NCBI GenBank assembly: GCA_051362555.1
Contig: CM120647.1
Location: forward strand, 2,418,001-2,482,000
Reading direction: 5' to 3'
Length of the DNA: 64,000 nt
DNA from: Lingula anatina
Lineage: Eukaryota; Animalia; Brachiopoda
Part shown: positions 18,711 to 41,646 of the stretch, piece by piece
How the letters are laid out: each line of letters begins with the position of its first letter
Numbering within the stretch: the stretch's first letter is position 1
Notes under the pieces: generated by a model
Database searches by the model: none
What the model was told of the DNA's origin: nothing
What the model saw: only the letters and a program-made list of their open reading frames with translations
Translations under genes and position numbers: made by a program

Positions 18711-21700
18711 CTCTTGATAAGCAACGTGATGTTGAATTTTTTTTAATCCATCATGTTTAATTTTTTGTAGGTTTTCCCAGAACAAATCCATGTTCCATGG
18801 TGGTTTATTTTAATGTTATGTCACAAAATTGGAACATTTAAAATGAGGATTGGGGAAGGAAATATTTTTCATGATATGAAATTCAAAGGAGATGCTACAA
18901 TTATCTATACACCATTGTGTTGCTAAATTGTCACTCTACATATATTTTTGTATTATAAGTTATTTTACCTTGAATCATGTCTTAGTAGAATGGGATCAAA
19001 GATCCCAGAAGATCAAATTAGATGCATTATCAAGAAAAGAAACTAATAAAATGCATATATCAAAATAATTGGAACCTAAAGTATGCTGTTACAGTATGTG
19101 AATGGTACATTTTGTCTGCATTTTAAGGATTTAATGTTATATGTGTATTAATTTGATAGTAGGTGAGACCATGACTAATGCAATTACTAAGGCGTTGAAT
19201 TTAAATAACAAAAAAAGGGGAAAGGAAATTGCGCAATGTAGGAAATCTAAGTAAGATATAAGTACAATTTATATATATTCATACATGTATCATTCTGTGG
19301 CTGAAGGGTTACTCTACATATATAAATTATGAATGCTATTTAAGAGTGTATCACATCGAGGTTAATTTGGGTGAAGTAACAAATGAGTTCAAATTTAGGG
19401 CATTTTCAGGAAAATAAACTAATAAATTTATTTATTAAGATAATTTAAACCTAGAATAGGGTAACCTTAAGGCATATATTCTATATTTCAGTGATTAAAT
19501 GGGGTTTTGGAGTTTTTTAACAGTAGGCAAAATCTGTGACTGAAACAAATTTAATACTGCAGAGTTGCTCAGTGCAATTGTAAAAAAATTGGGGGGGGGG
19601 GGATCACTCATAGAGTAGAAAATTTAAGTAATATATAACTTTGACTTATATATCTTTGTGTATAGCTGTAAGGGTTCCTCTAAACAAATCAATAAAAATG
19701 TCATGTTAATTGAATTATGTATAAGTAAAATAGGATCAGTAGTCATACTTGGTCAATTTTGAGATATTTTTAGGGAAATGAACCACTCAAGATTATTATT
19801 TATTATAGAGAACTTGAGTCTAGAAATTTCTTTTGTAGAAATATGTTTGGTAAAGTCAGTTTGAATTAAAAGGAAAGGAAACTTTTATGGAGCATCTATT
19901 TTTATGTACAGACAAAGATGGGCATATAATGAACACTGATAACACATTTCAAGGAAGATTAATGGGCCTATATTGTCTTGAAACTCATAGAAATGATAAA
20001 AAAATCAGCTTGATCAGAAATATTTGCAAAAGTTATGATATATTTTTTTTTTTTTACTTTTTTCAGCATATTTTATCCACCATTATACAGTTAACTTGAA
20101 AAGCATGTCATATTTTGCTTTAAAACTTGTGGAACTATGATTCATAGGACTAATAAAGAGATCAAGTGGAAAAATAAGCTTGATGGGTTCAGTTAATATG
20201 ATGAAGTGACTTTTTTGTATGTAAATAAGGGGTTTACCTCAGATTCAATTCTTAGGCATATGTTAATATAGTCTTATTATTGAACTAATTAGATACGTAA
20301 AAGTGTTCTTTTGATATTTTCTGTTTTTTTACAATATTCTTAGTTGATTATCTGAAAATGATGGTAAACCCATTATTGTGTAATAAAGTGTCAGTAATGG
20401 AAATAAATAAGAGGGTAAAATGAACTTACTGTAGTGATACTTACCATATTTGACCTGGATACTGCATCACCGACTAGTGACGTAATAGGCTCCACATGAG
20501 AGATGCGCATGCAGCTCAGCGTCATTCATTGCGCCGTTTCTCAGCAAAGCAGATGTGGATTTATAAGCTGCATGAAATTAATATTTCTGCAGTGTTTTGA
20601 GCTTTTTGAGTGCTTAACTATGTCACAGCATCATATTTCAAAGTAGTTGTAGTATGGACCACAGAGTGACAGATCAATGGTTCACGGGAAGGGAAATATC
20701 CCAGGGTGGGATGTGAAACCTATTCTGTCACCGACGATGATGTGGAATCCAGGTCAAATATCACTCACCTACAGTAAGTTCATTTAACCCTCTAATTCCA
20801 CATAACTGTTTAGTGACATAACAGGCTCCACATGAGACATTCAAAGTGTGGTCCAGACACAACACCTTACAATTTTTTGAAACCAGCAAATAAAGGCACA
20901 AACACTGTGTTTAAATCAACATGTATTAACTGCAAAGAACAATTGATAAACTTGTTTATCAAACAACTTGTAACAGCATATTTGATGCAAAATAGAAATT
21001 CATCTGCACAATTTGCAGGAAACAACTCTAACTGCACAAGTTGCAGTTATAAACAGGATATTTAAATGCTCAAAAGAATTCCTTCTGCACAATTTGCAGG
21101 TAACAACTGTAACTGCACAAGTTGCAGTTTAAAAAGTAAAATCAAATAAACAGTTCATAAAACAGTTCCCTGTAAATCTGAATGTCCATGTCAGACACCA
21201 GAGACAGACAAAATTGCATCTGCAAACTGGCCGTGTTGAGTTATTTTTTATCCTAATATCTAGCAAATGTGCAATCTTTAGACCAGCCAGCCATCTTCAA
21301 AATAGTGTCTAATGGCACTTTAGCACGTTTTGTTTGTGAAGATGTGTGGAGTAAATACATGTATCTCCATGTCTATACCAGCCATATTCATAATTTGCTT
21401 AATCCATCTAGATATGGTAGATTTGACTGCTTTCTTAAATGGCTTTACTATGGTGGCCCCTATTGGATATTTCGACTTTTCGACTTTTAGAGTTTTCGAC
21501 TTTTAGAGTTTGCGACTTTTAGAGTTTTCGACTTTTAGAGTTTGCGACTTTTAGAGTTTTCGACTTTTTGACTTTTCGAGTTTTTGACTTTTCGAGTTTT
21601 CGACTTTTTTACCAGTCATATGGCAACTGGCTGCGCGTAGGAAGATATTCAGAACGGAGCGCGTGCTCTGAGATGACGTCGAGGTCGAAATTTGTAAATT

Positions 21701-26212: not shown

Positions 26213-28684
26213 TGCTTGCCTTCCGCTTGCCAAATGTGCAGAAGTTCCGCAGCAAAAAGCTGTCCGCAGAAAAAAGTCAAAAACTCGAAAAGTCGCAAAC
26301 TCTAAAAGTCGCAAACTCTAAAACTCGAAAACTCTAAAAGTCGCAAACTCTAAAAGTCGAAATATCCAATAGGGGCCACCATACTTTACAGATGTTAAAA
26401 ACAATCTTGTGATATTTCCTCTCAAATGTTTGAGTCTGTTCATGTATTCCATTAAGACAGTACATAAACATAATATATCTGGTGCATATGCTGTCACTGT
26501 CATTTCACCAATGGTCTTGACTGCTTCAGTAAATCACCAAATCTAAATGTGACTTTAGACTTATTAATTGTGATGTTATATGAATGTCAATAAGGTGCAA
26601 CAATTGGGTTCTTTGACCTGTCAATAATATAGTCAATGTCACTGCTTTCTTGCTCAATTGTAAAAGATTAAGTTGTTTCACAGGTGAAAGTTTTTTAAGG
26701 TAATTCAAAAGCAAACTTGTGCCCCATATATCACATTGTTCCTTGGTAATGCAGGTCTAGAAGTAAAAACTCCTCTCATCAATCTAACCACATGAGGATG
26801 ACCACCTGCTGGACACTTATCCACCATAATAAAAGTTGCTTACCGTATATCTTGCTGTATTTAGAGCAGAATATCCAAGCTTCTCATCAAAGCAATATGG
26901 GCTAAAAATTTTACAACATCAGTTACATTTGGTGACAATGTATTAATGTTCCTCTCATTACAATATTGAATCCATCTTGAAATGTAAGATTCGTATTGCT
27001 TGACAGTTGTACCTCTCCATGAGGACATAACCAATTTGACAGCTATTGGCGAAAATGCCATATCTTCGAAACTTTCCCTGACAATACACAAGCCATTAGC
27101 TGTAACTTTGGAAGATGATTGTCCATGTTTTTGTGTGGGTGCAACAGCAATTCTTGATTCCTGGGAAGTAAAAAAAGACAAGATATTAACATATATGGCT
27201 CAATTTTGAAAACCATACTTGAGTTGTCCAATAAGGCACTACCACTATAATACTATATCCACTTGATCAAACTCAGTCTTGCTTAACATCTTTCCTATTA
27301 AAGAAAAAGGTGGAAATGCATAAGCATTCATCTGTGACCAGTCAATAGACAAGGCATCCATTTTCATAGCAAATGGGTCAGGTTCCATGAGACGTATTGA
27401 GGTAGTTGATTATTCAGCCTTGAAGCAAACAGATCCGTTTCTGGTAGATAAAACTGCTTAGTTATATCTTTAAATACTGTTGGGTGCAACTTCCATTCAA
27501 GATTATCATGATCAAGTCTACTTTCTTTATCAGTTTCTAGTTCTACATTATTTTCTGATTCAATATATGCAACTGATAGCCATATATTTTTTCCCTTGCA
27601 CCATAACCAAAATTTTCTGGCCAAGTCATTTAGTGAGGGTATTTTCCCTCCCATTCGAGCATTATATGACAAAGCAGTTGTATTATCTATACACATTTTA
27701 ATGTGAATATTTGTAAAAAGGATGGGGGGGGGGGGGGAATGCAGGGGTATTACATCAGGAGGGAACTGGTCAGCAGTTGAAAGAACTTTTCACATTAATC
27801 ATCTTGAATTACATGTATTAGCTGTATGGTTTGCTCTAAACTGCTTTGCACAAGATGAAACATCTCAGCGATTTTGATCACTTAAAAATTTTGATTTTGA
27901 TCACTTAAAAAGGATAGTAAATTGGCTATTTTGCATTAAGTAAAAAAGTGTTGAAAATGGAAATAAACTTGTTTCAGTACAGTTATCTCTTGTTTATTAC
28001 ATCTAGTAGATTGGGTTATTTGTTTTATTTTATATATATAATTTTTTTCCTTGCATGTATGAACATTTTTCTATTTCTGGCATTTACAAAGTGTGAACTT
28101 GAACTTTCATGGGTCTGAAGCCTTATATATATGTCAGTTACAATACTTACATCCATATCAAGTGTTTTGCATAATTAAAATTTGGTGCTTACTTTACTTT
28201 GCATAATGTATTATTGCAACAGAATTGCCAGTTGCCTATTTGGTGCATCATGTTTTTCTGCTTTCTTTCTGTACATTTGACAGTTTATAGTAGGTCAGAT
28301 TTATAGCTGATCCAAATACAGGAACAACAGAGAGGAGTTCAGGTCCATTGCAAAATGGGAAAACTCAACTACAATCTTTATTGAGTATAAAAATAAAATC
28401 AAATAATACTCCTGCATGGCAGCTATACACATGAGGTGAAACACACCTTCAAGACCTCCTCATATATATCTATGAATGATTGTACTCTGTGCCTTTTACT
28501 TGAAGTAGTGCCCAAGAACAATTGCTGACACCTATGCCAACTGAACTCACTGTTGAGTTGCTAAGAATGTTTAAAAATTGTATAGTGAAGGCAAAATAAT
28601 TCACTGTTTTATTAAAAACATTGTCAGACTAGAATGATTACTTGAAAATATTTTTGTATAAAGTATAAAATTTGATAAATTTTG

Positions 28685-31703: not shown

Positions 31704-32193
31704 TATCAGGCTTAGAAGTTTAGCAAATACTGTTGATGTAGTTCACTTGTCAGAGGTTGTCAGAAGTCTGGGGATCTCGCAGCTCAAAGTAGACTCTAAC
31801 ACACAAATGTTCTCTATATTCAGTTTATTCAATATATTCTTCTACTTCTCAGCTCTACTCCTCTTAATACGACCTGCTCTCTTGCTCTACCTCTGTCAAC
31901 TCTACTTCTCTAGTCAAACCATCTCTTTACATAGGTTCTACACTATAATTTATGGGAGGAAATGGGGGACAATAAATTGAATCTGGGGCTACTAGGTGAC
32001 TACAATAAGACTACAAGAAAGGAAGTGTCTGATGTTCTGACTACAAGAAAGGAAGTGGCTATTGTTCTAAGCTATCTAATTGAACAGGTGAACAGGTCGT
32101 AAAGTCTGAGAGGAAGTGCCATTGCATAAACAAAGTAAAGAAATCTTGCAACTTTATGTAACTAAAGACAAATAAATAAAAGTAGTTATGATA
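31704..32193 (-). repeat. 3' LTR (490 bp)
   Basis: No differences from 41157-41646 found by eye; TATCA...TGATA termini; minus-strand AATAAA at 31824-31829. Confidence 0.95.
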
Positions 32194-32226: not shown

Positions 32227-32742
32227 ATTTTTGTTTTGGTTTGAACTTATACAGATATGTGTACAAGAAATTCATTTAAATCAAAAGAAACATTATATAA
32301 TATCCCTAAATATTTATGAAGCAAATGCGTACATGTCCACGAACACAAATATATGGTTTGAACTTATACAAATATATTTATATACCCACAAGTGCTTTAT
32401 CTAAATCTAAATAAATGTACCATTAATATGTATGCAGACACTACATACACATCTACAAAAGAAATCTTGCAACTTTATGTAACTAAAGACAAATAAATAT
32501 TTTTGTTTTGGTTTGAACTTATACAGATATGTGTACAAGAAATTCATTTAAATCAAAAGAAACATTATATAATATCCCTAAATATTTATGAAGCAAATGC
32601 GTACATGTCCACGAACACAAATATATGGTTTGAACTTATACAAATATATTTATATACCCACAAGTGCTTTATCTAAATCTAAATAAATGTACCATTAATA
32701 TGTATGCAGACACTACATACACATCTACAAAAGAAATCTTGC
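32227..32742. repeat. Tandem duplication (272-bp period) in the env-LTR spacer, with an embedded LTR fragment
   Basis: 32227-32470 equals 32499-32742; the junction 32458-32499 equals LTR sequence at ~32138-32179. Confidence 0.9.
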
Positions 32743-33324
32743 TAACTTACAGGTTATAATTATGGTCACATTGGACATGTTGGTTACTTAAAATCGCAAG
32801 CTAGTAAATATACAATTAAAACTATGACTATATAAAAGGCTATTGATAAATGTTACGGTACTAATAAATTAACAAAATACATTATAACATGATACCGAAC
32901 TCATGTTTAATTCAGTGTTCACCCATATTACACATATATTTAGTTACATATACTTTAATTAGGTTTAATATTTAATTAGGTCATTATTTTATTCTAATGC
33001 CCTTCATGCTTTGATGTTGTACCACATCTTGTCAAATATATATGATTATAACTCTATACATAATACCTTATATCCCAACACCATACATATTTAATAATAT
33101 CATATATTGTCAAACATATATTTATTATTCTAATTATTAAACCTTATGTTTCAATACCTATGACAACTCTTTATTTTTTCAATTATGTTGTAAACAGTGC
33201 AATATGATTATTTGTCTCATTATTGGTAAATAATTCTTACATTCATATCTACTTTCACACGCAAGTGAACAAGTCTTTCTTATTGTTTTGCATATGTATT
33301 CTTTTTCTTTGCGCAATATGGCTA

Positions 33325-35675
33325 TTATAGGTAGACTAATCTTTTGTGGTGTATCACCACTAAATATACATCAAACGGTACTTTGGTTAATCTTTTTAGC
33401 TTTAGATAGTTCCACAGTGGTAAGTAAACAGTGACAGGCAATTGGATGTCAGAATTTGGTTTTGCATGGCAGGTTTGTACTAGGACATCATCTCCCCATT
33501 GAATGATTATCTTGGGACGGAGTCCTTTGACTAATGTTATATCTTTAACTAATGGAGCTCCCCTAACAGTAATTTCATTCGGACAAGATTGGATTTTTGT
33601 CAGTGGAATTATTTCATTCATTTGATGGTTTGATACTTCGATTGCCAAACAGTTTTTCAACTTTCTATTTCTGCATCGTCTCCATAGAATTATGGACAGC
33701 ACTAGCATCAAAGTGGCCATAAAATACACAGTGGGTGTAATCTCAGCAGTCAGGATTTCATACATGTCGAATTTTGTAGTTTCAGGTTGAGTTGTGGTGG
33801 TGAGCTTGTAGACAAAGATAGGGGCAGGCGTTGCCCTTGCTTGCCCTATTGTTAGCATAGTAGCTCCCAAGATTTTTAGTTTGTATGCCAAAGAAAAGGT
33901 GAAAAGTATGCCTAAACAAGCTAAACCTAAGGCTACATATGCAACTATTTCTTTCAGAGCCATATCAGGTTTGGGTAATTGTAAGTCTCCAGATAATAGT
34001 GGTTCGGTGAGCGATTGAAAGATTGTTTCTCCCTTTTTGGCAGCCTTCATTGCCTCTTTGAGATCCATTTGTATTTCCGAATCCTGATTAACAAACTTTG
34101 AAAAATTATGTGCAAATAATTTTATTGTGGGGATGTCCACAATTGGGGGAGTAGAGAATGATGAATGGCTTAAAAGGTGAGAAAAATTTTGGCTATCGAA
34201 AAAATGTTGAATTACTGCTAAGTTTATGGGGTGTAACACTTCTACGTCACTGGATGTTTCGCAAATCTGTTGGGGTGGCAGAAAAAAGGTTGAATGCTTA
34301 ATAGCGCATGAGCAAGGCACAGTCATAATGCAAAAATCGCACCCTGTAACTGTGGTGTTTGTTGCACATTCAAAAGTGAGATTGTAAATTTTACTGATAA
34401 TGATGTGATCCTTTCCCAGACGCTTAACTGATGGGGATGCACTATTGGGAAGGAATTTAAAATGACATATTTCCTTAACTTTGGGTTTATTTTCTTCTAG
34501 AATGGCCTGAATACAATCATAATTAACCGCGGGTTTTAATTTGGTAGCTTTACATAATCTTATTTTGTTTCCCGTACACTCATCAAGAAAATCTCTGCTA
34601 AAAGTTATCGGTGCCTTGGCCGAGGAAGACTTCCCAAAATATTCTGGAATATTGGTTAGAAGCGAGGAATGGTTACTTGTTGCATTGAACGGTATTTTAA
34701 AGACTTCGGTTTCAAACACTTGGAAACTGTTATGAGGTGCAAAAATGGGAATTTTGAGTGTAACGATAATGGAATCATTCATTTTGTTAGTAGCAAATTT
34801 TGCATATTGGTAATAGTATTGCATGTCCTGTTGAATAGAATAATGCTTTCCATGTTGTTGCAGGGCTGTCTGAATATGTTTTAGTGTGCTAGCCAAAACT
34901 TGGGGAGGGAATAGTACTGGTGAAAGCTTGCCATGTGTTAAGTCGTTTAGTCCTATAACTGTGCTACTTATCTCTTGGCTAAGTTTAGCAGTAACTGTAC
35001 TTAGGTGCATCAGTTTAGTGATCAACTTAAAATTGAACTCCATTTCATTTTCCACTACTTTCAGGTCTCCACCTATCATAACACCTAAATGGTGGTTAGC
35101 CGCTATTTCCTTAACTATATTTGTTAGTCTCAGATTTTGGTGATGGAATATCGAACCAAACTGGCGTGAAAATTTAGAGAAGGTTGTTAGGGCTTTTTGT
35201 TGTCTTGCTTGCAAGATATTCATATGATCGATAACCTTGTTGACTTGGCTTTCGGTTGCAACTCCGAACAAAGATTTCGCTATGTTACCCACAAATGGAA
35301 GAACTGAACGCTTTTCTCTACTCAATTGGCGACTAGGGGTCTTGAAAATCATGTCAACTTTGTGGTGGAAGGCTCTCAACTCTGCAGCAGTCTGACTGTA
35401 GAGCCTTTTTCCTTCTGAAATGGCCCTTTCCACTAATACACATGTTTTGTCGTCCACACGCCCTTCACAGTCTAGGTCATACGCTGACTCTGACGGAATG
35501 TCAGGTATGTGGATCGTCATTGAATGCAGCCAATAGTCGCTTACAATCCTAACAGTTCCCTTATCATGCAACATCAGTCCGTAATTCATAAGGGCTCTAT
35601 CTGCTAGGGTAACAGGCACAGTAGCTAACATCATCAGGATAATGAGTATGAGGTTGATGTCTCTTGTTTGGGTCA
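33325..35675 (-). CDS. env: Envelope/fusion glycoprotein (baculovirus-F/errantivirus-like class I fusion protein) with C-terminal extension
   Basis: Hydrophobic signal (LILIILMMLATVPVTLA), furin site REKR then fusion-peptide-like SVLPFVGNIAKSLFGVATE, heptad region, Cys-rich ectodomain, N-glycosylation sequons, TM IVAYVALGLACLGILFTFSLA, second TM VYFMATLMLVLSIILW. The annotated GTG start overlaps a splice acceptor. Confidence 0.88.
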
Positions 35676-35708
35676 CTGAAGGGGAAGAAAGAAAGGGGAG
35701 AGATTAGC
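35676..35708 (-). promoter_or_regulatory. env splice acceptor (branch point, polypyrimidine tract, CAG)
   Basis: Minus strand reads gCTAATctctcccctttctttcttccccttCAG|TGACCCAA. Confidence 0.8.
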
Positions 35709-36002: not shown

Positions 36003-39000
36003 CTAAACCTTTTGTTTGCGAGTTACTAATTTCCTGCGTCTTGCCTTTCCTGACATAGTTTTCTTTGCATGAAATTCAGAGATCAATATTTGTGGAACCT
36101 TCTCTGCCAAAACCCAATCTGATCCCTTTTTATGCTTCCATTTCACTCTGTACCACAGCACACTATTATTACCTCTAGCACCTTTCAGGATGCATTGAGC
36201 TTCATCACCTAGGGGTACCCCATTTTGATTAGGACTATCAGGAATATCACTGGATAGCATCTCCTTATCTACCCTTTCTGGATTTCTATCGTCCTCTGCC
36301 TGCTCGACTGGATAATCAGGTTCAGTTGCTGGTGGGGTTTCATTGTCAAATGGGGTGCGAATTATTGGGTCTGAGTAAGGTTTAAGACGATTGGCATTTA
36401 CTGGGTGTTTGAGCAGTTTATTGGTTGAACATTCCCTTAATTTGTAGGTGGCTTTCCCAATGATCTTGACTATGTAATACGGTCCTTTGAATTTTGGGGT
36501 AATTTTTGATGTTAGTCCCACTGGAGTACTTTCATTTCTTACCATGACCCTATCTGTTACGGCGTATGTAGGTTCTTTGGCCTTTTTGTTGTGTTGTCTA
36601 ATGTTCTGGGACTGTGAATTCAATTTAATTTGTGCAGCAGCTTTCCTACCTTTATTCAGAGAGTCTAGTTTTTGTGTAATGTAGTCTTCCATATTTTTGG
36701 GCAGGTCATTTTGGGGTAACAACTCGTAGTCTAAAGGGGTTGTCATTTCTTTGCCAAATAACAGAAAATATGGAGAATATCCTGTACCTTCAGCAGGTGA
36801 GCTCCTGTAGGCCATTAATATAGATTCTACATGGTTTGCCCAATCTGATTGGTCCTTTTTGCACAATGCCCGTAGGGACTGCCAAATAAATCCGTTGAAT
36901 CTTTCACAGACTGCATTGGTCTGAGGGTGGTAACTGGCCGTGTAATGTTTTTCTACATCAAAAATGTCACAAATGGCCTGAACTAATTTTGATCTAAAAT
37001 TTTGGCCTCTGTCCGTAATAATTTCGAAAGGAGCACCATATCTTGTGAAAATTTGAGAGTACAAAATTTCCGCTATTTCTTTAGCTTCTTGTGTTTTGAG
37101 TGGAAATGCTTCTGGCCATCGCGAAAATGAATCTACTGCCAAAAGAATGTATTTATGGCCAGATTTTGAAGGGGTTATTGGGCCTAAAATGTCAAGATGC
37201 CAGGTGCTGAAGACATCTTTGATGGGTAGGGGTTGCAAGGGTGCTGCTTGAATTCGATAACTTCTCTTTACTCTTTGGCAAACTTCACATGATTTTACAT
37301 ACCGCTTTACATCTCTAGGCATTTTGGGCCAGTAGTATTTTAGTCGGAGTTTCTCTAAACATTTGCGATAGCCTGGATGACAAGCTCCTGCTCTAACGTC
37401 ATGATATGCTCTCAAAACTCTCCGCCTATGCTGTTTGGGTACCACTAATTGTTCTAATACTGTGTCATCACCAGCCTTATGCCTTCTAGTACAGCGATGT
37501 TTCCTGTATAATACTTGATCTCTAAGGAAGAATATTTCTTGAATGCTTTTTCCTTTCTCCTCCAGACTACTAGGGGACTCTCCTAGTTTCTCAATCATGG
37601 GGGCTAAGTCTTTCGAGGACCGTTGCATCTGTACAAGGTTGTTTAAATTCACTTCCTTGGGATTATGTTCACTAATACTAGCTATTACCGTTGCAGTCTT
37701 GGGTTTCCTATAAACAAACCTTGTAGCTTCCCATTCACTCTTCTGAAAACCAACCTTACATGCATGAACTACACTGACTTCTTCCCGCTTTTGATCCTTT
37801 TCACCATCGTTAACCTCATCCTGTCTAGACAAGCAATCCACTGGATTCAGGCTTCCCTTTTTGTAAACCACCGTGTACTGTAAACCTTGAGTTTCCAAAG
37901 ACCATCTATTCAGTTTCTGATTGGACGACTGCTTGGACTCTAGCCATTTTAAGGGCATGTGATCTGTATATATAGTGAAATGACGGTTTTGTAAAAACTG
38001 GCGATATTCCCTTATGCCTTCAATTAAAGCTAAGCATTCTTTTTCCGTAACCCCATAGTTTCTTTCAGCATTTCTTAAAGTCCTAGAACCATAAGCAATA
38101 GCATGCTCTCGTCCGTCTTCTCCTACCTGACTTAACATGTAGCCTATAGCAAAATCTGAGGCGTCAGTTGTCAAATTAAACTCTTTATTCATATCAGGAA
38201 AAGCAAGTATGGGAGCGTTTGCTAGAGCTGACTTCAAATCATTAAATGCTTGATCACACTCATCAGTCCATTGGAAGTCCGTAGTTTTCTTAGTTAGGGA
38301 ACACAGAGGGGCAGCTATCTTGGCGTAACCTGTGACATATCGCCTGTAGTAATTACACATACCCAAAAAGCTACGCACCTGAGTACGAGTTTTAGGGATG
38401 GCAATCTTCTTAACGGCCTCTACCTTAGATGCATCAACCGAAATCCCGTCCTTGGAAATGAAATGACCTAGGAAAGCTACCCTTTTGGTGGCTAGTTTAC
38501 ACTTTGAGGTTTTGACAGAAAGATTGGCGTCTTGCAGCCTCTGAAATACTAACTCCAGGTGCTCTAGATGTTCTTCAAAGGTTTTGGAAAAGATCAGGAT
38601 ATCATCAATATAGCATGCTACCATGCGCCAGTTTAGATCTTTCAGAATACGAGCCATAGTGGACTGATAAAAACTCGCAGCGTTGCGAAGGCCAAAAGCT
38701 AAGCGTTTGAACTGAAAGTGCCCATGGTGAGTTACAAATGCAGATTTATGCCTGGTTTCCTCAGCTAGAGGCAGTTGCCAATAACCACTGAAGAGATCCA
38801 AAGAAGAAAAGAATTTAGCTTGAGATTCTGAAAGAATGTCCAGTACATCAGTAAGACGTGGTAAAGGAAAGTGAATAGGGGACGTGACCTTGTTGAGTCG
38901 CCTGTAATCAATAGCGAATCTCATGGAGCCATCTTTTTTTTTCACTAACACGACCGGACTAGCCCACTCACTGGTAGATTCCTCTATTATGCCATTTTTT

Positions 39001-40076
39001 AACATTTCGTCAGTCTGTCTCTCTACTTCGGCCTTCTGTTCAGGGGTTTGCCTATAGTGTCTTTGCCTCTGGGGAGGGGCATTTCCTGTGTCAATGACAT
39101 GACCTTTAACTCTACCTTCACCTACCTCAGACAAATTAGAGGCAAAAACTTCTCTGTACTTCCCTATAAGTATAAGGAGCTGTTCCTTTTGTGACTGAGT
39201 TAAATCTGCCTCATCTAGGCAAATACCAGTTTCTTGACCATGTTTTAAATACTGGGCTTTAGTCTCTACATCACTAACCTGCACTTGTTCATGAGAAGGG
39301 GTTGCTGACATAACGCTAGGTGGCCGTGGGTGAGTAAGAGATACAAGATTGCTTTCTTCTATTGGGTAAGCCTTAGCCATTAATTTATCATAGGGAATGA
39401 AAATGGTTTGGTTAGTGGGATTGTAGATGCGGCATGCACTCGTACCTTTGTCTATTTTCACCACACATCTGGCAACCATGTAACTATTTTCGATGGGTTC
39501 TAAAAGCAGATTTTCAGCGGTTGAGTTGTTAACTCCTGAAATTTTCACTGGTATTAATGCTTCTCTACCTGGGTCAATTCTACATTGTTGTACAGCACGC
39601 ACCAGGCCTAAATGATCAGGTTTGTTTGTCTTTGGGGCGTCATGGCTTTGGAAAGTAATAGTTTCATTTTTCACATCAAACTTAGCACCATTATTCCTAA
39701 GAAAATCTAACCCCAAAATAAGATTTCTCGGTAGCTGTTGAAATACATAAAAATTTTGGGAAAAGGGCTTTTTACCAATTTGAAAGTCTACTGTAATACA
39801 TCCCTTCACTTTATGCAATTCTCCCCCTACACCAGCTACTGCAACCAAATCAGCATTTTTTATTTTGAAATTTTGATTTTTCAACTGCCATAAGAGATTT
39901 TCTGAAATACATGAAACTGTAGCCCCAGTGTCTATCATTGCTTTTACCATTTTGTCACCTATCTCGACATCTATCAAATTGTGGTCAACGCGATCACCCA
40001 CAAAAATTACTCCTAAATTGCCAATTTTCTGTAAACTTTTGCTACCTATATTCTTAGTCATATTGCGCTCGCACCC
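36003..40076 (-). CDS. pol: Pol polyprotein: protease, RT, RNase H, integrase, chromodomain-like tail (in frame with gag; first ATG at 40061)
   Basis: IDTGA protease; SEWASPVVLVKKKDG, DYRRLN and YIDD in RT; TDAS and EKECLA in RNase H; H..H/CEVC, LDILGP, ITDRG and CERFN in integrase; KFKGPY; WYRVKWK...SDWV. Confidence 0.97.
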   Translation of the reverse strand, partial: GCERNMTKNIGSKSLQKIGNLGVIFVGDRVDHNLIDVEIGDKMVKAMIDTGATVSCISENLLWQLKNQNFKIKNADLVAVAGVGGELHKVKGCITVDFQIGKKPFSQNFYVFQQLPRNLILGLDFLRNNGAKFDVKNETITFQSHDAPKTNKPDHLGLVRAVQQCRIDPGREALIPVKISGVNNSTAENLLLEPIENSYMVARCVVKIDKGTSACRIYNPTNQTIFIPYDKLMAKAYPIEESNLVSLTHPRPPSVMSATPSHEQVQVSDVETKAQYLKHGQETGICLDEADLTQSQKEQLLILIGKYREVFASNLSEVGEGRVKGHVIDTGNAPPQRQRHYRQTPEQKAEVERQTDEMLKNGIIEESTSEWASPVVLVKKKDGSMRFAIDYRRLNKVTSPIHFPLPRLTDVLDILSESQAKFFSSLDLFSGYWQLPLAEETRHKSAFVTHHGHFQFKRLAFGLRNAASFYQSTMARILKDLNWRMVACYIDDILIFSKTFEEHLEHLELVFQRLQDANLSVKTSKCKLATKRVAFLGHFISKDGISVDASKVEAVKKIAIPKTRTQVRSFLGMCNYYRRYVTGYAKIAAPLCSLTKKTTDFQWTDECDQAFNDLKSALANAPILAFPDMNKEFNLTTDASDFAIGYMLSQVGEDGREHAIAYGSRTLRNAERNYGVTEKECLALIEGIREYRQFLQNRHFTIYTDHMPLKWLESKQSSNQKLNRWSLETQGLQYTVVYKKGSLNPVDCLSRQDEVNDGEKDQKREEVSVVHACKVGFQKSEWEATRFVYRKPKTATVIASISEHNPKEVNLNNLVQMQRSSKDLAPMIEKLGESPSSLEEKGKSIQEIFFLRDQVLYRKHRCTRRHKAGDDTVLEQLVVPKQHRRRVLRAYHDVRAGACHPGYRKCLEKLRLKYYWPKMPRDVKRYVKSCEVCQRVKRSYRIQAAPLQPLPIKDVFSTWHLDILGPITPSKSGHKYILLAVDSFSRWPEAFPLKTQEAKEIAEILYSQIFTRYGAPFEIITDRGQNFRSKLVQAICDIFDVEKHYTASYHPQTNAVCERFNGFIWQSLRALCKKDQSDWANHVESILMAYRSSPAEGTGYSPYFLLFGKEMTTPLDYELLPQNDLPKNMEDYITQKLDSLNKGRKAAAQIKLNSQSQNIRQHNKKAKEPTYAVTDRVMVRNESTPVGLTSKITPKFKGPYYIVKIIGKATYKLRECSTNKLLKHPVNANRLKPYSDPIIRTPFDNETPPATEPDYPVEQAEDDRNPERVDKEMLSSDIPDSPNQNGVPLGDEAQCILKGARGNNSVLWYRVKWKHKKGSDWVLAEKVPQILISEFHAKKTMSGKARRRKLVTRKQKV

Positions 40077-41129
40077 CTATTGTTTTATAGTCCTGCACAC
40101 AGTTGCTAGGTGACCTAAGCGGCCGCATTTATAACAAGTTTTATCTTTTGCAAAACAAGAAGAAGGAGAATGACTCGTCCACTTACCACACGTATTGCAC
40201 TTGCGCTTCTCACTTTCTCTCTCTCTGCTCCTTTCTCTACTTCTTTGCCTAAATTGACTACGGTTGTCCTCCCTTGCCTGAAAAGAAACTTTTCTATCAT
40301 TAGTATTGGTTGTTACAGCTTGAACACTTGCACACTTAGTGACCAGCTGGCTCAACTGGCTCATTATATCCTTGTGCATTCCCGCAAACTGTGACATGAC
40401 ACTGGCCATGTTCACAACTTCAGTCTGGGCCACTGTTGGTGCTGGCTCCTGACTTGGGCTGCATGCAGAGGCAGCGTCTGCCAGAGTGGCAGCCTCCTGC
40501 AAGTCTCTCAAGTTTTGGGGGTTTTTCATGATTATGGCTGTCCTTATAGAAGGATCAAGTCCATTCACAACAGCTGCAACTATGTGTTGCTCCGGCAATC
40601 CGACTTCTCTTCCCATTTTTGTCATTTTTGCTAGGTAGTCTCTGATTTTTGTATTTCCTTGCTGACATGAAAACAATTTTGCTGTCCTTGTTCTTATGGT
40701 GGCTGGGCTAGGTCCATACCTTGTCAAAAATTGCCTTTTTAAGGCTTCAAAGTCAGCTTTGGTATCACCATCCAAAGTTGAATACCAGGTCTTGGCATTA
40801 TCCATTAATAAATAAGCAAAATGAGACAGTTTCATTTGCAGGTTATACTGCATTACCTGGCAGTACTCTTCATATCTGCCCATCCATTCCTCTGCATTTT
40901 CACTCTCATCTCCTCGGAAAGGAAATGGAGAGAGGTGTTGTGGGAGGGATAAAATAACCTGATGTCCTGGTTGCCTTGGTCCCTCTGCTGCTTGTGATGG
41001 TGGTGGTGGTGGTGGAGGAGGTGGTGTTGGTGGTGCTCTGCTACTTACATTTACTGCAGATGGCCCTGGCCTTTCTGCCTCACGGGTTGGCTCCTCTTCC
41101 TGGGCTCTGGGTGATCTTCTGGTGGCCAT
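40077..41129 (-). CDS. gag: Gag (capsid plus two zinc knuckles)
   Basis: 350 aa; Pro-rich N-terminus; PFRGDESENAEEW..RYE and AKTWY..L...F..LK..FL..Y capsid pattern; CNTCGKWTSHSPSSC and CYKCGRLGHLATVC. Confidence 0.93.
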   Translation of the reverse strand: MATRRSPRAQEEEPTREAERPGPSAVNVSSRAPPTPPPPPPPPPSQAAEGPRQPGHQVILSLPQHLSPFPFRGDESENAEEWMGRYEEYCQVMQYNLQMKLSHFAYLLMDNAKTWYSTLDGDTKADFEALKRQFLTRYGPSPATIRTRTAKLFSCQQGNTKIRDYLAKMTKMGREVGLPEQHIVAAVVNGLDPSIRTAIIMKNPQNLRDLQEAATLADAASACSPSQEPAPTVAQTEVVNMASVMSQFAGMHKDIMSQLSQLVTKCASVQAVTTNTNDRKVSFQAREDNRSQFRQRSRERSRERESEKRKCNTCGKWTSHSPSSCFAKDKTCYKCGRLGHLATVCRTIKQ

Positions 41130-41156: not shown

Positions 41157-41646
41157 TATCAGGCTTAGAAGTTTAGCAAATACTGTTGATGTAGTTCACT
41201 TGTCAGAGGTTGTCAGAAGTCTGGGGATCTCGCAGCTCAAAGTAGACTCTAACACACAAATGTTCTCTATATTCAGTTTATTCAATATATTCTTCTACTT
41301 CTCAGCTCTACTCCTCTTAATACGACCTGCTCTCTTGCTCTACCTCTGTCAACTCTACTTCTCTAGTCAAACCATCTCTTTACATAGGTTCTACACTATA
41401 ATTTATGGGAGGAAATGGGGGACAATAAATTGAATCTGGGGCTACTAGGTGACTACAATAAGACTACAAGAAAGGAAGTGTCTGATGTTCTGACTACAAG
41501 AAAGGAAGTGGCTATTGTTCTAAGCTATCTAATTGAACAGGTGAACAGGTCGTAAAGTCTGAGAGGAAGTGCCATTGCATAAACAAAGTAAAGAAATCTT
41601 GCAACTTTATGTAACTAAAGACAAATAAATAAAAGTAGTTATGATA
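41157..41646 (-). repeat. 5' LTR (490 bp)
   Basis: Matches 31704-32193; followed by the PBS and the gag ATG 28 nt downstream. Confidence 0.95.

Follow-up and report, generated by a model that had tools for sequence, protein, structure and literature searches.

How are Ty3/gypsy capsids wrapped in membrane when their Gag shows no matrix domain? The question is raised by a gag-pol-env element in a 64,000-nucleotide (nt) stretch of the Lingula anatina genome (the window; contig CM120647.1, positions 2,418,001 to 2,482,000); the element lies on the minus (−) strand and is described here in window coordinates. The Gag of this element begins M-A-T, with no Gly at position 2 and a Pro/Glu-rich low-complexity stretch following, and its Pfam matches of note are a capsid domain (98–215) and one zinc knuckle, nothing else; the initial annotation, which had seen neither an N-terminal myristoylation Gly nor an obvious matrix domain in Gag, was thus right on the first count and, as far as sequence matches tell, on the second. 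A motif scan of the same protein found no PS/TAP, YPxL or PPxY motif. The answer we propose is a matrix supplied via Env, not Gag: on balance we think it probable that the env open reading frame (ORF; 33325..35703, 792 amino acids (aa) and numbered stop to stop) encodes a class I, F-type fusion protein and, in frame behind it, a second membrane module that is likely to be released by signal peptidase as a ~19-kDa single-pass protein with a cytosolic domain of predicted matrix fold, and likely to drive envelopment and budding.

Homologs of Env do not stop after the F protein anchor (first transmembrane segment, TM1; residues 586–607, 33883..33948), and the tail beyond it is conserved. A full HMMER scan with Env matched 1,839 representatives (E ≤ 0.001), and 150 of these underlie our family counts; among 152 proteins collected, a sample biased towards tailed homologs by the use of a full-length query, 112 span TM1 and the tail. 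The tail profile matches 117 of the 152; another 17 stop short of TM1, and in 18 TM1 is present with no tail match, these last being fragments or mis-ended gene models as judged by eye. Dropping a 98% identical paralog left a working set of 111 proteins with a median pairwise identity of 0.21 (maximum 0.47; 1,500 sampled pairs). The closest named relative is a Lingula anatina protein, 98% identical; among the further homologs that bear a name are proteins of Saccostrea, Mytilus, Pinctada and Mya. Searches by word matching had little sensitivity, finding 2, 3 and 9 proteins, a single-protein scan returned one locus, identical to the query, and a tail-profile search of longer proteins, free-standing short domains not being searched, found only Env-type matches (labelled Baculo_F or gag-fused, or unlabelled).

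Following the chain towards its C-terminus, we see two hydropathy peaks on a 19-residue Kyte-Doolittle (KD) average, one within TM1 (586–604, mean 2.24) and one within a second transmembrane segment (TM2; 655–673, mean 2.09), each reaching KD ≥ 1.6 in 108 of the 111 homologs. Between them lie a basic K-L-K linker (608–610, 33874..33882; K/R in 94% and 83% at two columns), which would serve as the n-region of a predicted internal signal; eight uncharged residues forming its h-region (612–619, 33847..33870; charged in 9/111 homologs); an A-R-A triplet (A622-R623-A624, 33832..33840), the predicted signal-peptidase site, with the cut placed after A624 from the statistics of Ala at −1; and a short, predicted luminal ectodomain (33739..33831) made up of a conserved P-x-F-x-Y (P628 in 89%; aromatic at Y632 in 95%) and a Ser/Thr/Pro-rich spacer (Ser plus Thr 28%). 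TM2 itself (residues 656–674, 33682..33738) is followed by a juxtamembrane basic cluster, RRCRNRKLK (33655..33681), and by a cytosolic domain (684–792, 33328..33654). All the strings that the initial annotation had placed after the F-type anchor are present in the ORF, the second TM that it claimed is borne out by the hydropathy peak, and its ~115-aa tail corresponds to 118 aa after TM2, basic cluster included, of which ~109 aa are folded domain; some 185 conserved residues lie beyond TM1. Its signal-like segment stands as regards the A-x-A site, but the stretch 612–619 has no 19-residue peak of its own.

The basic cluster after TM2 and the positive-inside rule place the tail in the cytosol, which requires the chain to cross the membrane between TM1 and TM2. 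An inverted arrangement, with the signal-like stretch left in the cytosol and the tail forming a second, luminal ectodomain, would suit the continuous TM1-signal helix of the AlphaFold model and some conserved cysteines of the tail (C707 in 79%); net charge is nevertheless higher after TM2 than before it in 111/111 homologs, and the matrix fold and late-domain motifs described below make sense only in the cytosol, leaving this topology extremely improbable. The initial annotation had offered a viroporin as one option, and alphavirus 6K, likewise small, single-pass and freed by signal peptidase from an envelope polyprotein, would be the model for it; TM2, however, is conserved less than any other part (mean identity to the query 13%) and has no conserved polar residue, whereas the tail has conserved columns and a confidently predicted fold. 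The option of an ion channel with an incidental tail finds no support, and we regard it as very unlikely.

Is the segment between the two TMs then a cleaved signal? By a loose (−3,−1) rule, 100 of the 111 homologs have a site, where shuffled sequences give 50.8 on average and at most 66, and the commonest offset is 19 residues past the Lys (59 rows vs 12.4); as sole evidence this test was rejected, since it is not specific: a control anchor in the tail also passes it (80 vs 36). Requiring Ala at −1 retains 74/111, compared with a shuffle mean of 28–29 (max 39–46) and with 4–20 at five control anchors, one of which (20 vs max 19) barely exceeds its own shuffles. The full pattern of basic, hydrophobic and cleavage-site regions (n-h-c), home-made and, like our other signal patterns, fixed after data inspection, is found in 87/111 proteins as against 0–3 at the controls. 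Env thus carries what marks signal-peptidase-processed polyproteins, an internal n-h-c signal behind a TM that obeys the (−3,−1) rule, and the suggestion that it is a polyprotein gains support from the conservation of this pattern at a fixed distance from TM1, from which cleavage is predicted. The computed products would be F2 (11 kDa), F1 with the signal attached (55 kDa) and a second protein of 19.5 kDa. Flavivirus prM-E, alphavirus E2-6K-E1 and bunyavirus Gn-Gc use the same device, an anchor, a basic linker and an internal signal freeing the next membrane protein; unlike Env, they carry class II fusion proteins, and what is freed is a luminal glycoprotein or a channel rather than a cytosolic domain of matrix fold.

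Three observations weigh against cleavage in the window copy: its best h-region 8-mer (KD 1.75) is the 13th lowest of 111, weaker than in most relatives; its site falls at offset 16 instead of the usual 19; and AlphaFold merges TM1 and the signal stretch into one helix. The weak h-region and the merged helix would also fit an uncleaved, three-pass F-M fusion bearing the same matrix-fold domain, in which each spike carries its own cytosolic matrix domains. Eight hydrophobic residues are nonetheless short for a stable TM, and suit a cleaved signal better than a lasting membrane span; Ala, moreover, is concentrated at a fixed −1 position, with small residues at −3. We therefore consider the uncleaved protein rather unlikely, and retain signal-peptidase release as the preferred reading.

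What the released protein might do is suggested by its tail, for which structure prediction gives the Mononegavirales matrix fold, the beta-sandwich of Borna M, VP40 and the C-terminal domain of paramyxovirus M, in two models, the second being a replicate. In a structure search with the tail, all nine top rows belong to this one fold family and come from three virus families. In BFVD, bornavirus M models match at probability 0.91–1.00. The tail is positively charged in 105/111 homologs (median net charge +5; +11 in the window copy, juxtamembrane cluster counted). Sequence comparison gives nothing similar: the tail profile found 1 unrelated row among PDB sequences (E 0.63), and no Pfam family was matched by more than one of the 23 members scanned. 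A tetramer prediction for the tail (score 0.00; alignment not used, fold uncertain) was not used either way. Weak BFVD matches to the tail (probability 0.25–0.44) also include short, uncharacterised ORFs (126–178 aa) from arli-, lispi-, nyami- and rhabdo-like viruses, which may be unannotated matrix genes.

Beyond the domain, 93 of the 111 homologs continue for at least 12 residues, and 42 of these extensions contain [LIMV]YPx[LIV], where shuffling gives a mean of 0.52 and at most 4; P[ST]AP is present in 16 (mean 0.34 and at most 5 on shuffling), either motif in 43 and both in 15; PPxY is not enriched. In viral budding, motifs of the LYPxL type bind ALIX and those of the PS/TAP type bind Tsg101, and late-domain motifs recruiting the endosomal sorting complexes required for transport (ESCRT) occur in some Mononegavirales matrix proteins. 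The window Env ends at the domain and has no such motif. Many tails (P0018, P0027, P0049, P0053 and P0061 among them) extend into a C-x-x-x-C-x-x-C cluster after the matrix-like domain, possibly a small zinc site or an acylation patch.

The matrix-like or budding role put forward in the initial annotation is thus supported by the predicted fold in two models together with the late-domain motifs of many homologs, and a tail both conserved and confidently folded in prediction is hardly an unstructured appendage. One could still suppose that the module is real and cleaved with a matrix match arising by chance, or that the domain has been repurposed (as a fusion regulator, trafficking adaptor or RNA-binding factor) and drives no budding. 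The agreement of all nine top rows on one fold, the strength of the bornavirus matches and the marked enrichment of late motifs in relatives speak against this alternative, which we hold to be unlikely.

In the scheme that we favour, Env would enter the endoplasmic reticulum (ER) and TM1 would stop transfer; the h-region would then go back into the membrane, acting as an internal signal that signal peptidase cuts after A624, F presumably keeping a TM-plus-signal hairpin. The freed type I protein is predicted to have ~30 luminal residues with its N-terminus outside, TM2, and a matrix-fold domain on the cytosolic leaflet, and would be made one-to-one with F. By analogy with M/VP40 and the fold family, these domains may pack beneath the membrane, gather F spikes and link them to the Gag capsid, an Env-borne matrix function that would replace the one this Gag seems to lack. 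In many family members, LYPxL and PS/TAP after the domain would recruit ESCRT for scission; the window copy lacks these motifs.

How far can the tail be equated with known matrix proteins? Its predicted fold is that of Borna disease virus M (PDB: 3f1j) and of the two-domain M/VP40 proteins, described from Paramyxoviridae, Pneumoviridae and Filoviridae (PMC3887258); unlike these, it sits inside env on its own TM tether, in a reverse-transcribing element, and has no detectable sequence similarity to them. It is not a separate, soluble, TM-less gene product of a negative-strand virus, being in frame with env behind TM2, and because it is TM-anchored and part of Env we do not class it as a member of the Mononegavirales matrix proteins; at best, the predicted fold would have it work like M.

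The same layout may exist in Jingchuvirales glycoproteins (G). Against BFVD, the best match of the tail is Taiyuan leafhopper virus G (Aliusviridae; E 2.8e-3, probability 1.00, TMq 0.59); glycoproteins and long uncharacterised proteins make up the first six rows, and bornavirus M models come next. For the whole module, 8 rows pass E ≤ 0.001 over 300–410 columns, with Shayang fly virus 1 first at 6.7e-7, and 5 of the 8 bear chu-related or chu-like, mivirus or Shayang names. As target ranges are unreported and whole-module TM-scores against jingchuvirus glycoproteins are low (0.22–0.27; rmsd 21–31 Å), an F-TM-signal-TM-M order shared with them can only be inferred. These proteins differ from Env in belonging to negative-strand RNA viruses and in their length (1040–1235 aa). 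The Viro3D paper places Aliusviridae G among the long class I fusion proteins and, in the text consulted, mentions no matrix domain in Jingchuvirales glycoproteins (PMC12583693). The word 'matrix' occurs 0 times in a preprint on endogenous jingchuvirus glycoproteins, and solely as 'distance matrix' in one on a Tasmanian devil chu-like virus; in the literature covered, with subscription journals and bioRxiv supplements outside its scope, no matrix domain is described in retrotransposon Env or jingchuvirus G.

The Env ectodomain is F-type at the family level, going by sequence. The env family profile matches PDB entries 9w4d ('fusion protein', E 7.9e-20) and 9w4c (E 2e-18), and Baculo_F was matched in 11 of 35 homologs scanned with Pfam; searched by itself, the window Env matches nothing in Pfam or among PDB sequences. 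The usual parts of an F-type Env are present: an N-terminal signal peptide by hydropathy (residues 16–34, 35602..35658), and a furin-type REKR site (129–132) with a fusion-peptide-like segment (35254..35319; hydropathy and sequence) ahead of the F-like ectodomain. The first in-frame ATG is codon 24, the hydrophobic run beginning upstream of it, after a splice-acceptor-like site. Class I fusion proteins usually have one C-terminal TM and a short tail, a layout from which this Env departs in its second TM and 118-aa tail. The F-type errantivirus Envs surveyed by Chary and Hayashi (eLife, PMC13524379) share with it the Ty3/gypsy gag-pol-env setting, signal peptide, furin site, fusion peptide, F-like ectodomain and TM, whereas the window Env adds ~185 conserved residues after TM1; that survey covers ectodomains only, its main text using 'matrix', 'cytoplasmic' and 'budding' 0 times, and its supplement lists a Lingula assembly without intact copies. 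The lokiretrovirus Env (PMC7947760) is likewise a retroelement Env related to Mononegavirales F, but is described with one TM, and 'matrix' occurs 0 times in the paper's text.

The element is an F-type errantivirus, with gag, pol and env between long terminal repeats (LTRs) and all three frames open. The 490-bp LTRs (5′, 41157..41646; 3′, 31704..32193) are 100% identical, indicating a very recent insertion; they end in TATCA...TGATA, not TG...CA, and are flanked by a 4-bp AAAT target-site duplication. The pol frame (36003..40076, 1357 aa) encodes protease, reverse transcriptase, RNase H and integrase in Ty3/gypsy order, and homolog loci L001 and L003 have a gypsy-type pol upstream of the same Env type. 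By eye, the pol C-terminus (~36040–36180, −) appears chromodomain-like, as in L001 and L003; a Pfam scan gave no chromo match. The gag frame (40077..41129, 350 aa) ends in a TAG (40077–40079, −) in frame with pol and followed by GGG TGC, that of L003 (1504–1506) by CGG TGC; this context suggests stop-codon readthrough, not frameshifting, an arrangement that we take to resemble that of gammaretroviruses.

In gene models P0002, P0003, P0004 and P0104, Gag is spliced from its first zinc knuckle onto Env, so that the predicted product is a fusion of Env with a Gag lacking nucleocapsid; the window has matching splice-like sites in frame, a donor-like GTAAGT at 40186 and an acceptor-like pyrimidine tract with AG at 35676 (−). 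Such models may mirror a genuine Env transcript or a habit of the gene predictor. Eight same-species RNA runs yielded 12–126 reads each and no joints, a depth too thin for a splicing test. The long AT-rich 3′ non-coding region contains a 251-bp segment repeated at 272-bp spacing with 99% identity (32227–32477 and 32499–32749). Elsewhere in the window are fragments resembling, by eye, DIRS-type retroelement proteins (26861–27789, −) and inverted arrays of 8-bp units ~4.7 kb apart (repeats D1/D5, 21436–21627 and 26256–26383).

By structure prediction, the matrix fold of Borna M, VP40 and paramyxovirus M is placed here in a reverse-transcribing element and in membrane-anchored form, a form of which the literature covered gives no description. 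That a broad marine-invertebrate Ty3/gypsy lineage carries, in a single F-M polyprotein, a complete negative-strand-virus envelopment kit of fusion protein plus matrix, the matrix being anchored in the membrane and accompanied by late domains, and that the same layout has gone unrecognised in jingchuvirus glycoproteins, is a wider claim that we put forward tentatively, at a little under even chances. The finding bears on the origin of errantivirus F-type env genes, because an F-M unit shared with jingchuvirus G is a much more specific marker than F alone. Were the wider claim true, the F-M layout would give jingchuviruses a matrix protein, none being annotated in the text consulted; it would point to a jingchuvirus-like relative from which these env genes came or to which they are sister; and a TM-anchored, single-domain M would become a candidate ancestor of Borna M and of the duplicated VP40/paramyxovirus M.
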